20,000 bases of DNA from an uncultured virus (IMG/VR IMGVR_UViG_3300031539_000018) (Duplodnaviria > Heunggongvirae > Uroviricota > Caudoviricetes): the IMG/VR virus record IMGVR_UViG_3300031539_000018, positions 49,346 to 69,345 of that record. One strand, given 5' to 3'. Numbering within the stretch: the first letter of the stretch is position 1; every line of letters begins with the position of its first letter. The notes below the pieces were generated by a model that saw nothing but the letters and a program-made list of their open reading frames with translations, had not been told where the DNA came from and ran no database searches. The position numbers and the translations under genes are program-made. Positions 2,809-16,837 of the stretch are shown one piece after another.

Positions 2809-3031
2809 GCTTCATTACTGGTGATTCCCGGCGATAAGGATTCTGGCCTGTTTCTCCCTCTGGACTTGCATGTAAACGACGCTATTCTGTTTTGTTTGCG
2901 ACCTTGCTTTTGGGCGTCATTAGCGGCGCCCTGGCGGGCGCTGGCGGTTTTTGTGGCAGAATAGGTCTCTTGGTATCCTCGAAACGGCAGAACGACGCAC
3001 AGTGAATCATGTTATAATAGCAAACTGGTAC

Positions 3032-3060
3032 TTGACAAAAAACAAACAACCTGTTATAAT
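3032..3060 (+). promoter_or_regulatory. Consensus sigma70-type promoter with extended -10
   Basis: TTGACA (3032-3037), 17 bp, TATAAT (3055-3060) with TG at the extended -10 position. A second TGTTATAAT lies at 3010-3018. Confidence 0.9.
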
Positions 3061-3090
3061 ATAAGTAGAATGAAGAAGCAGGAGGGGGCA

Positions 3091-3585
3091 ATGGGGAGCG
3101 AGATCAAGGACCTGAGGGTTTGGAAGAGAAACGGCGGCAAAGAAGTCAGATATTATGTCCACACGGTCGATGGCCGCGAAGGTTGCCACTACGTGACCGG
3201 CAATCACTGGAATGAGGCGGGGAGTTACAGCGGCGATATGACCGAGGCGGAGTGGGCAGAAGCTCTTGAGATCGCAACCTGGGACGGTACAGTTCACACG
3301 GTTTACGAAGACCGGGTGAACCAGGCCAAAGCCAATGCAGATGTCGGGGAACCGGTGAAGCGGGAATCGCAGTCGCGCAAGAACGCCTACGCGGGGGTTT
3401 GCATCTACTGTGGTCGATCAGTTCCGGCGCGGTCAGGCGAATTGCTCTACATCGGCGAGGGCGACGAATACGCATTTCAGAATGCCCGGTTCGGTGGTTT
3501 TGGCTGGCAAGTCAAGTGTGCCGGTGGTTGTCTCTCGGTAGCGTCGGGAGCAGCGACGGGCAGCGAAGAATCAATCACAGCATAG
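3091..3585 (+). CDS. Hypothetical phage early protein with C-terminal CxxC
   Basis: First gene after the promoter; GGAGGGGG RBS before ATG 3091 (alternative start 3070); KNAYAGVCIYCG motif. Confidence 0.75.
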   Translation: MGSEIKDLRVWKRNGGKEVRYYVHTVDGREGCHYVTGNHWNEAGSYSGDMTEAEWAEALEIATWDGTVHTVYEDRVNQAKANADVGEPVKRESQSRKNAYAGVCIYCGRSVPARSGELLYIGEGDEYAFQNARFGGFGWQVKCAGGCLSVASGAATGSEESITA

Positions 3586-3604
3586 CAATGAGGAGGAGAG
3601 GACA

Positions 3605-3814
3605 ATGGCACAGAGAGTCTATCGCAATCCCGATGCAGTTCTCAGGGCCGCGCAACGCAAGCTAGGGGGCAGGCTGGCAACTGACACCGGCTCGCCAGTT
3701 CTGCATCTCTCGCAGCGCAGCTCAGTCCACGGCGCAGTTGTAGACACATATCTATCGCCTAGCCAGGCGGCTGAGTGCGCTGGACTGGACTACCTGCCAC
3801 ATGACCAAGCATAG
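3605..3814 (+). CDS. Hypothetical protein
   Basis: GAGGAGGAGAGG RBS; fits operon packing. Confidence 0.65.
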   Translation: MAQRVYRNPDAVLRAAQRKLGGRLATDTGSPVLHLSQRSSVHGAVVDTYLSPSQAAECAGLDYLPHDQA

Positions 3815-3851
3815 CCACGGCGGAACCTATACATAGAGAGGAGAAGATACA

Positions 3852-4066
3852 ATGACACACCCTTGGGAAGATGTGGGGGGAACGCTCTGCCCTGAGTGCG
3901 GAGAGCCAACGGGTACTGTGATGCGTTCGGCTAGGGAGGAGAGGCCGAGTGGCCCGCTTGGGTTGCTTATCATGATGAGAAGTACCTGGTCGATGCTGTT
4001 CGCGAGAAGGTCGAGAGGGCCGCATGGGCAGTAGCCGATGCCAAGATGGAGGGAAACGATGGCTAA
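3852..4066 (+). pseudogene. Probable degraded Zn-ribbon gene (frameshift plus internal TAG)
   Basis: RBS and MTHPWEDVGGTLCPECGEPT in one frame. A second frame from 3914 reads YCDAFG*GGEAEWPAWVAYHDEKYLVDAVREKVERAAW...NDG* and overlaps the next start. Confidence 0.45.
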
Positions 4067-4271
4067 CGTGTCGCAGGAAGAGTTCGACAGGGTCCTGGCG
4101 GAGGTGGAGCGCAAGACCTGCTTCCGGTTCACGGCGGGTACGCGGAACCCCACGTCAACTGCGTTCATGGTGCCAGTCGCGTCCGACGGCAAAACTCCCA
4201 TGGGCAGCGCCACAGAGTTTTCCTGGAAGCAGTTGGTGGGTATGTCCAAACTTCCCGAGAGACCCAAGTAG
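4059..4271 (+). CDS. Hypothetical protein
   Basis: GGAGGG RBS before ATG 4059 (alternative start 4038). Confidence 0.6.
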   Translation: MANVSQEEFDRVLAEVERKTCFRFTAGTRNPTSTAFMVPVASDGKTPMGSATEFSWKQLVGMSKLPERPK

Positions 4272-4340
4272 CCGATAACCGGGGGCAACCCCGGTCACCC
4301 GCGATGCCGCCGTGCGGGTCCGATGAGGCAGAGGGCGGCA
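4271..4340 (+). ncRNA. Variant type II hammerhead-like ribozyme with loop I/3' tail pseudoknot
   Basis: GCC-GATAA-[CCGGGG GCAA CCCCGG]-TC-[ACCCGCG...TGCGGGT]-CCGATGA-GGC. Loop TGCCGCC (4305-4311) is complementary to GGCGGCA (4334-4340). Confidence 0.65.
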
Positions 4341-4363
4341 ACGGAGGACAGAGGAGGCTACCA

Positions 4364-5017
4364 ATGACTGCACTGACTCTCGATGAACAAAGTCTCAAGA
4401 CATGGCAGCGGCTGCGCCCCACGCACAAGCAGATACTGAGCCTGGGCACCAACCCCAAGCAGTTCATGCACGTGCAGATGGGCCAACTGGAGGCCTGGGG
4501 CAATGGCTTTATGCTACTGGTGGGGAACTCGCCGGATGTGCCGTGCGTGGACGAGAGAGAACGCACGGACTGGACCAACAAGCAGCATCTCCTGAAGCCG
4601 GGTTCTTGCCCTATGGATCCGCTGCTCTACGTGGAGGCCGACGGCTACAGCACGCGGGATAGGTCCCTGCTCATCATGGCTATGCTGTCGCCCACGGATG
4701 GGGCCGTGCTGGAGCACCTGACCGTCAATGCCCGCATGGCGCTCTTCATAGAACGCGAGTACAGAGCACGGTTCCCCGAGGACTGGATACTTGGCTGGCG
4801 GGGTAACTTATCGGCGGAGGCGCACATGCACGGCTGCGCCAAGGTACACCCGAGGCCGCTGACGTACTGCGTGCGGGGTCCGGCGGAGGATGGCTGGATT
4901 GGGGCAGGGGTGCTCATGCCCAGGACGGCGGGCTTTGTGAGGGCTAGGGACGGCTCCCAGGCGGTGCGGTATGATAGTGGGACTAGGATGTATCATCGTG
5001 AGGCACCTGGCGTATAG
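4364..5017 (+). CDS. Hypothetical protein
   Basis: GAGGAGG RBS before ATG 4364; long ORF; no family recognised. Confidence 0.7.
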   Translation: MTALTLDEQSLKTWQRLRPTHKQILSLGTNPKQFMHVQMGQLEAWGNGFMLLVGNSPDVPCVDERERTDWTNKQHLLKPGSCPMDPLLYVEADGYSTRDRSLLIMAMLSPTDGAVLEHLTVNARMALFIEREYRARFPEDWILGWRGNLSAEAHMHGCAKVHPRPLTYCVRGPAEDGWIGAGVLMPRTAGFVRARDGSQAVRYDSGTRMYHREAPGV

Positions 5018-5054
5018 GAAGGCTTTGAGATTATGAGAGAGGGAGGATGGTGAT

Positions 5055-5312
5055 ATGACCCGCATGATAGAACCGTATAATGCGAGATCTCTGGAACCTG
5101 GCGATGTGATGGTGCGCACAGTGGCAGTGCATGTACTTCCGGGGCGTCAGGATGGTGAGCTGCTATATCGTGTGTACGTTTGCGCGTGGTCTGACCCGCC
5201 CCTGAGTGATGGGGTGCCGCAGGGTACGCGCATCTATGATGAGGGGGGCAAGGTAGCACAACAGCTATGCCCGATCATCGGCTACGTCGGGGCCAAACCT
5301 GACCTGGGCTGA
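5055..5312 (+). CDS. Hypothetical protein
   Basis: GGAGGATGGTG RBS; fits operon packing. Confidence 0.7.
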   Translation: MTRMIEPYNARSLEPGDVMVRTVAVHVLPGRQDGELLYRVYVCAWSDPPLSDGVPQGTRIYDEGGKVAQQLCPIIGYVGAKPDLG

Positions 5313-5367
5313 TGTTTTGCTGGCAAAGGAAACTGTGGGCTGCGCTTTTGCGCAAAAGGAGGGAGAG

Positions 5368-5730
5368 ATGGACTGCTTTCTGGAATCACTAAGTGTGGCA
5401 ATGAGCTGTGGGGTGGTTCTCGGTCTTTTGCTACTAGCGGCTGTACTCGGGTTTGGCATAGCGGGTGAGCTGGGCCTCATTGCCCCAATAGGAAATGAGA
5501 AGCCAAACCGGCGCTGGCTTGAGAGGCAACGGGGTTATAACCTGCCCAACATGCCCAACAGGACCCCGGCACAGATAATCCGGTTCCTTTGTCATGAGTA
5601 TGCCGCGTGCCGCAAAAACGAGAGGTACTTCAAGGCGAAGGGTTATTCTGCAGAGGCTCATCAGTATCGCATGTGGGCAGGCTATCTCAGGATAGCGATT
5701 GTAGATCTCAAGAGAGGCCGCACGAAATAG
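5368..5730 (+). CDS. Hypothetical protein with N-terminal transmembrane segment
   Basis: AGGAGGGAG RBS; hydrophobic GVVLGLLLLAAVLGFGIAG. Confidence 0.65.
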   Translation: MDCFLESLSVAMSCGVVLGLLLLAAVLGFGIAGELGLIAPIGNEKPNRRWLERQRGYNLPNMPNRTPAQIIRFLCHEYAACRKNERYFKAKGYSAEAHQYRMWAGYLRIAIVDLKRGRTK

Positions 5731-5741
5731 GGAGATGGGCG

Positions 5742-5969
5742 ATGCCAGATAAGTTTCGGGGCCAGTATCCGACGGTGCCCTGTGTGGAACAGCGCCTTGA
5801 GGAGTACCTGGATAAAGAGGACCGCTGCGTCCTGGAGGACGACTACTGGTGGGAGATGCAGGACGCGGCGGCTGACAGCGGGGTGGACGTGATGATCCTG
5901 GTGGAGGAGATACCGTTTGAGAAGTGGCTGCGGGCCAGGAGGGAGGGGCGTGGTGACCGCGAAAGCTAG
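5742..5969 (+). CDS. Small acidic hypothetical protein
   Basis: GGGAG RBS; MPDKFRGQYP...; fills the gap between neighbouring genes. Confidence 0.6.
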   Translation: MPDKFRGQYPTVPCVEQRLEEYLDKEDRCVLEDDYWWEMQDAAADSGVDVMILVEEIPFEKWLRARREGRGDRES

Positions 5970-6462
5970 TCGTGTCAAGAGGGCGCGGGCCATGGTGGAC
6001 CTGGGTGCGGTGTCGGTCCTGCGGAAGAAGAAAGGGAACCGGCAACGGGCCTGGCGTATGCCCAGCGCCTCCGTGATGGGTAGCTGGTACGAGGTCTTTG
6101 CCAAGTTCGTGGCGGACAATGGCATAGTCCGGGCGTGGTTCTTCTGCAACCATATTCACCCGTGGGGTGACTGCGAACCTGATTCTAGCCCTACGCTCCC
6201 TACAGAGTTGGGCGGAAACTACGCATCTATGGAGAAGTGCGACGGCAACCGCAACACGGTCTGCTATCACTGCCTGGCGGCCATGGTCAAACTGGCCAAA
6301 GGCCGCCGGATGACCGTGCAGTTTGTGGACAGCCGCCGGAAGGCTCAGGCGCTTGCGCGGCTGGGGACGGTGGTGGAGATGTGTGGGGAGGGGCAGGTGA
6401 AGCCGAAGGTGTGGGCTGTGATGCGCAAGCGAGGAAGGAAGAGGAGGAAGTGCAGTGGCTAA
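5950..6462 (+). CDS. Hypothetical protein with SWIM-like Zn-binding motif
   Basis: GGAGGGG RBS before GTG; C...CDGNRNTVCYHCLAAM resembles the SWIM C-x-H-x-x-A pattern; basic tail. Confidence 0.6.
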   Translation: MVTAKASRVKRARAMVDLGAVSVLRKKKGNRQRAWRMPSASVMGSWYEVFAKFVADNGIVRAWFFCNHIHPWGDCEPDSSPTLPTELGGNYASMEKCDGNRNTVCYHCLAAMVKLAKGRRMTVQFVDSRRKAQALARLGTVVEMCGEGQVKPKVWAVMRKRGRKRRKCSG

Positions 6463-13075: not shown

Positions 13076-14287
13076 ATGATTGTACAGAAGAGCCATAGGA
13101 TACAACTGAGACCCAACAATGAGCACCGAAGCGGTTTCAACCGCTGGGTTGGTGCTTACCGTTGGACTTACAACTGGGCGCTAGAACAGAAGAAGACAGC
13201 CTATGAGCAAGAGGGCAAGTCACTGAGTAAGTACGGTGTGCAGAAACTCTTGACTATTGAGAAACACACGCTGGAAAGGGCGTGGCTCAATGATATCCTG
13301 CGAGACACGCTTGTCAATGCAATATGGAACATGGACAGGGCATACCAGAACTTCTTCCGGCGGGTCAAGAATGGAGAGGCCAAAAAGGGTTTCCCAAAGT
13401 TCAAGTCAAGACGGACGGCGCGGCGCGTTTTCCACGTCACGGCGTACCTCGTGCAATTGAGCGAAGACCGACGGAGCGTCAAGTTGCCTAAACTTGGATG
13501 GGTTAGGATGAGCAAGGCCCTGCGATTTGAGGGCAAGATGGTTGGGACAGTGGCTGTCAGTGAAGAGGCGGGGCGGTGGTATGCATCCTTCGTCGTTGAG
13601 ACTGAGATACCCGATCCTCCGGATCGTAGTGCTGACCCTGTGGTGGGCATCGACGTCGGTATCAAAACGCTAATGACGCTTTCTGATGGGAAGCGATATG
13701 AGAATCCGAAGGCTACCTATGAGCTAGAGAAGCTACTGGCGCGGTCACAGCGCCAACTATCCTGCAAGACTAAGGGGAGTAAGCGGCGGGCTAGGGCAAA
13801 GCTGAGAGTCCAGCGGATACAGAAGCGGATCAAGGATGTGCGGGTAAATGCGGCACATCAAGCCACGGCGGAGGTGACTAGGGACTACGGCCTCGTAGCT
13901 ATGGAGGACTTGAATGTCAAAGGCATGGTCAAGAATCGTCACTTGGCAAAGGCCGTGTCAGACTCCAATTTCAATCGGTTGCGCCAGCAGTTGACGTACA
14001 AGACCGCGTGGAGCGGCAGTAAACTGAGGCTCGTGGACCGTTGGTTCCCGTCCAGCAAGCTGTGCTCTGAGTGCGGTTGCATCAATGATAATCTGACACT
14101 TTCAGATAGGAGGTGGACTTGCGATTGTGGGGCTGTTCATGACAGGGACCTAAACGCTGCCCAGAATATTCTAGCGGCGGCGCTAAAGTTGGCCGACGAA
14201 TCGGCGGTCACTGGGCGTGGAGGGATAGGGGCCTCAAGTCCTCCCGATGAAGCGTCAAGCGGGCAGCAGGAGGTGATAGATGCATAA
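13076..14287 (+). CDS. tnpB: RNA-guided endonuclease TnpB (IS200/IS605/IS607 superfamily), catalytic motifs intact, no adjacent TnpA
   Basis: N-terminal HRIQLRPN...YRWTYNWAL, GFPKFKSR, LPKLGWVR; RuvC-I VGIDVGIK, RuvC-II AMEDLNV, Zn finger CSECG...CDCG, RuvC-III HDRDLNAAQNI. Confidence 0.95.
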   Translation: MIVQKSHRIQLRPNNEHRSGFNRWVGAYRWTYNWALEQKKTAYEQEGKSLSKYGVQKLLTIEKHTLERAWLNDILRDTLVNAIWNMDRAYQNFFRRVKNGEAKKGFPKFKSRRTARRVFHVTAYLVQLSEDRRSVKLPKLGWVRMSKALRFEGKMVGTVAVSEEAGRWYASFVVETEIPDPPDRSADPVVGIDVGIKTLMTLSDGKRYENPKATYELEKLLARSQRQLSCKTKGSKRRARAKLRVQRIQKRIKDVRVNAAHQATAEVTRDYGLVAMEDLNVKGMVKNRHLAKAVSDSNFNRLRQQLTYKTAWSGSKLRLVDRWFPSSKLCSECGCINDNLTLSDRRWTCDCGAVHDRDLNAAQNILAAALKLADESAVTGRGGIGASSPPDEASSGQQEVIDA

Positions 14288-14322
14288 GACCCGCAACCCC
14301 GAATTGACGGGGTCCTCATTCG
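14190..14322 (+). ncRNA. Putative omegaRNA/reRNA-like scaffold overlapping the tnpB 3' end
   Basis: Hairpin GCCGA-CGAA-TCGGC, a GGGCGTGGAG...CTCCCGATGAAGCGTC segment resembling TnpB right-end RNAs, and hairpin ACCCCG-AATTGA-CGGGGT. Boundaries are inferred. Confidence 0.5.
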
Positions 14323-16725: not shown

Positions 16726-16837
16726 GGGGGCGGCGGTAGCTCAATAGGCAGAGCACGGACGGATGGGTGAGCGATGACGTCTAGCAAAACCCCGGGAAAG
16801 CCGCGTTGTGGGTTCGATCCCCACCCAGCCCGCCCCC
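16726..16837 (+). ncRNA. tRNA-like element or pseudo-tRNA with expanded anticodon arm
   Basis: TA-GCTC-AATAGGCA-GAGC D arm; GTGGG-TTCGATC-CCCAC T arm; closing stem GGGGGCGG/CCGCCCCC; 42 nt between CGG and CCG; no CCA. Confidence 0.75.

Follow-up and report, generated by a model that had tools for sequence, protein, structure and literature searches.

A candidate type II hammerhead ribozyme with two core deviations, conserved between genes of an uncultured phage

An intergenic gap in the genome of an uncultured dsDNA phage holds a complete pseudoknotted type II hammerhead whose core departs from the consensus at two places, by a C in place of U at position 4 (U4C) and by an extra U after A13 (U13a). 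The gap lies in the window, that is, the whole stretch of 20,000 nucleotides analysed here, which forms the final 20 kb of an IMG/VR virus record of 69,345 bp with an estimated completeness of 93%. Judging from its conservation in a diverged relative, the element is very likely a hammerhead homologue under purifying selection, and the reading that we consider probable on the same sequence evidence is that of a genuine pseudoknotted type II hammerhead that has a variant core, is kept by selection and functions as a self-cleaver.

U4 is among the most conserved hammerhead nucleotides, and U4 together with a contiguous GAAA is treated as near-invariant, so annotation pipelines skip elements of this kind; the one in the window stays below the Rfam threshold.

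A complete hammerhead architecture in an intergenic gap

On sequence inspection, window positions 4271–4340 contain all parts of a pseudoknotted type II hammerhead (Table 1). The original prediction, made from the letters alone, had described a complete type II topology between two genes, a core reading CCGAUGA instead of CUGAUGA and GAUAA instead of GAAA, and a 7-bp pseudoknot between 4305–4311 and 4334–4340; each part is present where it had been placed, both core deviations are correct and the pseudoknot consists of seven Watson–Crick pairs.

Stems I and III are capped and stem II is open, with three helices arranged round the junction, as in the type II permutation. Stem II has 3 bp (4271–4273 with 4327–4329), while stem III has 7 bp, the A15.1–U16.1 pair included (A4278–G4284 with C4289–U4295), and carries a GNRA-type loop. 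Stem I also has 7 bp, the last of which is a G·U pair (A4297–G4303 with U4313–U4319), and encloses loop I (4304–4312), seven of whose nine bases are taken up by the pseudoknot (U4305–C4311 with G4334–A4340). The tertiary contact between stems I and II is thus present in the form of a loop I/3′-tail pseudoknot. In the core strand from C3 to A9, five of the six specified positions match the hammerhead consensus and position 4 is C. The pairs A15.1–U16.1 (A4278–U4295) and G10.1–C11.1 (G4327–C4273) and a non-G at position 17 (C4296) are all in place. On the other core strand, a single U is inserted after A13 relative to the consensus GAAA, and G12, A13 and A14 are not contiguous.

Table 1. Coordinates of the hammerhead element and of the neighbouring features in the window
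Feature	Position	Strand	Basis or remark
Sigma-70-like promoter: TTGACA, 17 nt, TATAAT, 12 of 12 matches, with TG	3032..3060	+	Consensus scan; predicted function
Upstream ORF, 77 aa, no known family	4038..4271	+	GC3 0.78, as in other window genes
Hammerhead reading: GCC GAUAA CCGGGG-GCAA-CCCCGG UC ACCCGCG-AUGCCGCCG-UGCGGGU CCGAUGA GGC AGAG GGCGGCA	4271..4340	+	
Stem II 5′ strand GCC, positions 11.3–11.1	4271..4273	+	Sequence, Rfam alignment, descriptor
Core strand G12 A13 U13a A14, reads GAUA, then A15.1	4274..4277	+	Sequence, Rfam alignment
Stem III hairpin: ACCGGGG, loop GCAA, CCCCGGU	4278..4295	+	Sequence, folding
Predicted cleavage site: C17, scission C4296/A4297	4296..4297	+	Predicted from hammerhead architecture
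Stem I hairpin: ACCCGCG, loop AUGCCGCCG, UGCGGGU	4297..4319	+	Sequence; identical in L007
Pseudoknot 5′ strand UGCCGCC, in loop I	4305..4311	+	Sequence, descriptor
Core strand C3 C4 G5 A6 U7 G8 A9, reads CCGAUGA; consensus CUGAUGA	4320..4326	+	Sequence
Stem II 3′ strand GGC, positions 10.1–10.3	4327..4329	+	Sequence
Pseudoknot 3′ strand GGCGGCA, after the 4-nt linker AGAG (4330–4333)	4334..4340	+	Sequence
Shine-Dalgarno AGGAGG, 6 nt before start codon 4364	4352..4357	+	Sequence; same AGGAGG and 6-nt spacer in L007
Downstream function-unknown gene, 217 aa	4364..5017	+	Only neighbour conserved along with the element

The Rfam Hammerhead_II model (RF02276) aligns to the element over its full length (1–66 of 66) with 28.2 bits and an E-value of 5e-4 in a 221-nt search (4200–4420), below the gathering score of 37 bits. 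This match is not listed in a 70,000-base Rfam search at E ≤ 1, the filters being stricter with more sequence. The same search gave no other ribozyme in the genome at E ≤ 1, and no ribozyme reaches the Rfam gathering thresholds in the window or in the remaining 50 kb of the genome. We also used a relaxed descriptor that admits U or C at position 4 and 0–1 base after A13, with at least 5 bp in stem I, at least 4 bp in stem III and at least 2 bp in stem II. It found exactly one site on both strands of the 69,345-nt genome, namely window 4271–4329 with its 7-bp pseudoknot, and none in 100 first-order Markov genomes. Nested MFE folds of the element, of its cleaved halves and of the diverged relative described below (L007) were no better than those of shuffled sequences (z from −1.3 to +0.1); nested-only folds swap stem I for the pseudoknot helix, and MFE folding is uninformative here.

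Genomic setting

The plausible genes of the window all lie on the + strand and include a DNA methyltransferase fragment, an ATPase, a DUF5131 protein, an HNH endonuclease, a phrog_506-family transposase and a DnaB-like helicase. The candidate promoter at 3032–3060, which is preceded by a terminator-like hairpin (2924–2943) followed by a T-rich tail, probably starts the operon that contains the hammerhead element. Counted from there, the element lies some 1.2 kb downstream, within what is probably an operon of small function-unknown genes. The first ATG (3070) comes only 10 nt after the −10 box of this promoter, which suggests that the first gene of the operon is leaderless or nearly so.

The element occupies most of the 92-nt gap between the upstream ORF and the gene at 4364–5017, and the UAG stop codon of the former (4269–4271) shares G4271 with stem II. 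A position just before the next ribosome-binding site (RBS) had been part of the original prediction, and this agrees with the AGGAGG ahead of gene 4364 and with the place of the element inside the operon; a second GGAGGA stands at 4343–4348. An overlapping frame at 4024–4278 was rejected as a gene, as it is without the GC3 pattern of the real genes here.

The neighbouring proteins yielded no functional lead from PHROG, Pfam or Atlas. Megablast of window positions 3000–6000 against cultured phages gave no match, and blastn of the element against cultured phages gave three chance-level matches (E about 1–3), which lie inside structural genes of Gordonia phages. The DnaB-like helicase is at most 35% identical to that of any INPHARED phage.

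Two further observations concern other parts of the window. The 403-aa transposase at 13076–14287 (phrog_506, E 1.6e-113) is overlapped at its 3′ end by a sub-threshold match to the Rfam family ‘Transposase-2 RNA’ (14249–14315, 25.3 bits vs 42.7), and, judging from sequence, the segment 13076–14315 resembles the transposase gene of an insertion sequence together with the 3′ RNA that belongs to it, placed inside the phage replication-gene region. A tRNA-like match at 16730–16832 is likewise sub-threshold (27.6 bits vs 29) and spans 103 nt for a 71-position model; ARAGORN found no tRNA in the 20-kb window.

Conservation in a diverged relative

Identical copies of the element occur on two other IMG/VR assemblies (L005 and L006), so the core changes are not sequencing errors. 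One diverged relative, L007, is located elsewhere on the contig of L006. Its downstream protein is 67% identical to that of the window, and the two genes agree at 70.9% of nucleotides and at 57.3% of third codon positions (213 aligned codons). The 77-aa ORFs upstream of the element show no similarity between the window and L007, so the homology starts at the 5′ edge of the element.

The L007 element reads GCC GAAA CUGGGG-UGGAGG-CCCCGG UC, continues with stem I, loop I, CCGAUGA and GGC as in the window, and ends with GAU GGGCGGCG. It therefore has C4 with a canonical contiguous GAAA, U13a being absent, and it scores 27.5 bits against Rfam Hammerhead_II. Two of its differences from the window fall on paired positions, and both keep the pairing: C4280 is replaced by U in stem III, turning a C–G into a U·G pair, and A4340 is replaced by G in the pseudoknot, turning a U–A into a U·G pair. 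Loop III is GCAA in the window vs UGGAGG in L007, and the linker is AGAG vs GAU.

Altogether, 57 of the 59 paired or core positions are identical between the window and L007, whereas the unconstrained positions of the element have almost all changed. At the divergence of the downstream gene, the binomial probability of only 2 changes in 59 positions is 5e-7. That loop III, the linker and U13a differ while the pairs and the core persist speaks against a recent copy and for selection on the fold. From this comparison, the hammerhead fold and core, including C4, appear to be under purifying selection and not to be decaying. The original prediction had allowed for either an active variant or a decayed ribozyme; with all but two constrained positions unchanged and those two pair-preserving, L007 favours the former and speaks against the latter. 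The signal of fold conservation is strong and that of covariation weak (one diverged relative with two one-sided, pair-preserving changes), the covariation being weak because the family of the element itself comprises only two distinct sequences and includes no double compensatory change.

Protein-guided scans of IMG/VR and metagenomes returned no versions of the element beyond the window type and L007. One contig with a closely related downstream protein (L012, 92% identity) begins 15 nt before the ATG, and the element region is therefore absent from it. The contig shared by L006 and L007 is an IMG/VR sequence of 143,142 bp on which the two versions, about 30% diverged, lie around 53 kb and 126 kb, some 73 kb apart. 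The occurrence of the window sequence and of a diverged version on one contig seems to reflect either an end-to-end joining of two related phage genomes or a chimeric assembly.

Recurrence of the two core changes

U4C and the U insertion had been pictured originally as a paired change that other phages might share. The pairing did not hold: C4 occurs alone in L007 and in 16 other sequences, and U13a occurs alone in L200. Each change therefore recurs in phages by itself, and the scans run gave no example of the C4 and U13a combination in any hammerhead other than the window element. The idea that U4C and U13a form a compensating pair was rejected, since L007 and the 16 others have C4 with GAAA and L200 has U13a with U4.

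A scan of IMG/VR with the pattern GCGAAAC..GTC..CYGATGAGC, which admits both bases at position 4, yielded at least 130 loci and at least 155 matches; among the matches listed, stems I and III both reach 4 bp or more in 122, of which 120 have U4 and 2 have C4. The complete C4-only scan (GCGAAAC..GTC..CCGATGAGC, IMG/VR) gave 97 loci. The stem filter, which asks for 4 bp or more in both stem I and stem III, is passed by 27 of them, against about 0.2 expected by chance by our own arithmetic, and failed by 70. The 27 passing loci represent 16 distinct sequences. C4 phage hammerheads found in this way include L214, L220, L224, L226, L237, L240, L261, L264, L273, L287, L290 and L292. The stems of the 16 sequences are very different from one another, many of the sequences directly follow a stop codon, and their GAAA is canonical. 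These data show that C4 keeps recurring in phage type II hammerheads whose structure is otherwise intact. In principle the change could reflect mutational noise and not a tolerated state.

The C4 sequences were compared with the 115 distinct U4 sequences among the matches listed. Stem lengths are similar in the two sets, a pseudoknot of at least 4 bp is available in 11/16 C4 vs 80/115 of these U4 sequences, and a Shine-Dalgarno sequence and start codon follow within 40 nt in 9/16 vs 71/115. When the window and L007 are added to the 16, stem I pairs 1–6 are paired in 17–18 of the 18 C4 sequences, with two to five standard pair types at each position; the first four of these pairs were required by the filter in 16 of the 18, and pairs 5 and 6 were free. 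Scores against Rfam vary widely: L240 (56.8 bits) and L264 (48.9 bits) lie above the threshold and L214 (28.1 bits), L273 (29.5 bits) and the U13a variant L200 (34.6 bits) below it, and the scored C4 hammerheads other than the window and L007 span 28.1–56.8 bits. A third stem II pair (10.3 = C) is present in 10/16 C4 sequences vs 38/115 U4 sequences among the matches listed, a difference that is exploratory and uncorrected (Fisher p 0.03). The window element likewise has a 3-bp stem II.

The IMG/VR scan for U13a (GCGATAAC..) returned 22 loci, of which one, L200, passes; here GAUAA goes with the canonical U4, a pseudoknot is present and an RBS follows. Scans built on stem I were narrower. With ACCC/GGGU as the first four stem I pairs and C or U at position 4, IMG/VR contains seven loci, which are the window family and two distinct canonical type II hammerheads, and with C4, ACC/GGU as the first three stem I pairs and a canonical GAAA, L007 is the sole match. 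The ACCC/GGGU pattern has 39 matches in bacterial genomes, nearly all of them chance occurrences in GC-rich coding DNA; the only hammerhead by eye among them, L048, has U4.

Canonical type II hammerheads were also seen in arrays, with at least 10 pattern matches within 2.9 kb of L139, at least 4 at L085 and at least 3 at L097, which amounts to about one ribozyme per small gene.

Proposed working and alternative explanations

We infer transcription, cleavage, its rate and its consequences for expression as follows. The element would be transcribed within a polycistronic mRNA, probably from the promoter at 3032–3060. Stems I, II and III would fold, the loop I/3′-tail pseudoknot would keep stems I and II parallel, and self-cleavage by internal transesterification would separate C4296 from A4297. 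Genes 3070–4271 would then be on an upstream message whose 3′ end is the stem III hairpin with its GNRA loop and a 2′,3′-cyclic phosphate, and the downstream message (gene 4364–5017 onward) would begin with a 5′-OH and the stem I hairpin, 45 nt 5′ of the Shine-Dalgarno sequence. From there on, stability or translation could differ between the two halves of the operon. Cleavage with C4 would probably be slower than with the consensus core, or condition-dependent, and C4 and U13a could jointly be worse than either change alone. That the element cleaves itself at a biologically useful rate is, on the evidence of its sequence, fairly likely.

A wider extension of this scheme, drawn by analogy, strikes us as doubtful. 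In it, C4 hammerheads would form a functionally distinct, selected subclass in which metal ion, pH or a factor gates cleavage, like the Mn2+-preferring A6C hammerhead of Bcep176. The window element with C4 and U13a would be its most attenuated member, a tunable cut setting the ratio of the upstream early genes to gene 4364–5017, and the homology boundary at the 5′ edge would hint that such ribozymes mark or even promote the exchange of phage cassettes.

The sequence GUAGCC (4268–4273), which overlaps both stop codon and stem II, is perfectly complementary to GGCUAC (4356–4361) at the end of the Shine-Dalgarno sequence, and the two are paired in the MFE fold of the uncut RNA. Masking of the RBS by this helix and unmasking by cleavage was considered and rejected, since L007 offers only three such pairs.

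Conservation could also be maintained in a hammerhead derivative that has lost catalysis and is retained as a structure, a stable three-way junction and pseudoknot set between stop codon and RBS, where it might block exonucleases, insulate the translation of neighbouring genes from one another or bind a factor. Two changes at near-invariant core positions would fit such a role, and selection on paired positions alone is no proof of catalysis. U4C moreover lowers activity in vitro strongly, according to the accessible part of PMC3088659. A purely structural role, however, would need none of C3, G5, A6, G8, A9, G12, A13, A14 and C17, all of which are intact in the window and identical in L007, and this makes us regard a dead derivative as unlikely. 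The 16 other C4 hammerheads keep the remaining core as well, an observation that is weakly informative because the search pattern fixed those positions.

We hold it to be quite improbable that the element is a decaying, functionless relic whose identity with L007 stems from recent recombination between co-occurring phages. The two versions do come from the same sample and share a 143-kb contig, a block of 41 nt is 100% identical between them, and homology starts abruptly at the left edge of the element, as at a mosaic junction. A recent transfer would nevertheless have kept the loops identical, yet loop III, the linker and U13a differ; substitutions have spared the constrained positions or preserved their pairing, and the adjoining gene is 29% diverged in nucleotides.

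A third reading, with no RNA element at all and an N-terminal extension of the downstream protein from ATG 4304 instead, a codon that shares the frame of 4364 in the window as in L007, finds support in the open frames (4304–5017 and, in L007, 1450–2163) but was rejected on its GC pattern and is hardly credible, as GC by codon position is flat over 4304–4363 (0.70, 0.65, 0.70) vs 0.62, 0.47 and 0.77 in the gene, no Shine-Dalgarno sequence stands before 4304 whereas both phages have AGGAGG and a 6-nt spacer ahead of 4364, and 100% identity over 41 nt ill suits a gene that is 57% identical at third positions.

Significance and comparison with known systems

With the window element, the known phage hammerheads gain one that carries two simultaneous core deviations and still bears the signature of purifying selection. 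Should cores with C4, and with C4 and U13a together, prove to cleave, the accepted hammerhead consensus would have to be loosened, and the natural variants would represent ready-made slow or condition-dependent ribozymes. Should they fail to do so, the conservation of these cores would suggest that the hammerhead fold has a non-catalytic use. Either outcome would be of modest reach.

Neither the kind of element nor its placement is new, and each core change taken singly has been described before, whereas the combination of U4C with U13a and the extent to which C4 recurs in phages appear to be unreported in the literature searched. A search on U4C or CCGAUGA hammerheads returned nothing relevant beyond Perreault et al. 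2011, and no paper on phage C4 hammerheads was found. Neither CCGAUGAG nor the string CGAUAAC occurs in the accessible part of the Perreault et al. supplements, whose alignment file, available in part, may contain such variants.

The window element resembles the type II hammerheads of RF02276 in its permutation, short stem II, GUC cut site, G10.1–C11.1 and A15.1–U16.1 pairs, loop I/tail pseudoknot and location between phage genes. It differs from them in having C4 instead of U4, an extra U after A13 and a score below the gathering threshold. Its pseudoknot is long, with 7 bp compared with mostly 4–5 bp among the IMG/VR matches listed. Its canonical IMG/VR neighbours, L014 and L017, have the same layout before an RBS and an ACCC/GGGU stem I, which the scan required, and score 44.6 and 47 bits.

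A viroid ribozyme with U4C differs from the window element in topology and in biology (rolling-circle processing). For this viroid hammerhead it has been reported that the change ‘considerably decreases activity in vitro’ yet leaves enough for function in vivo (Ambros and Flores 1998, as cited in the accessible part of PMC3088659). The type II consensus with its loop I/3′-tail pseudoknot is described in the same source (Perreault et al. 2011, PMC3088659, Figure 2A), where natural variants are also presented, among them U13a, ‘inserted in the GAAA region’, whose extra base may point out of the core with ‘minimal structural change’; the natural example is apparently from Solibacter usitatus (Figure 5 and Figure S6). 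This variant and L200 have GAUAA in common with the window element, but both keep U4 where the window has C4.

The closest phage precedent for a single core substitution is the A6C hammerhead of Burkholderia phage Bcep176, which is slow with Mg2+ and active with Mn2+ (Naghdi et al. 2020, PMC7151607, and PMC3088659, each in its accessible part). Like the window element it is intergenic in a phage and has a substitution in the core, one that slows Mg2+-dependent cleavage, but at a different core position (PMC7151607, accessible part). The shift in preference towards Mn2+ has been shown there for A6C. The U4-to-C change of the window, in a hammerhead that is otherwise intact, is shared by the viroid U4C example in the accessible part of PMC3088659 and by the phage C4 hammerheads found here. 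The latter also share the order of stop codon, ribozyme and RBS with the window element, but have a canonical GAAA and a GC/GC stem II.
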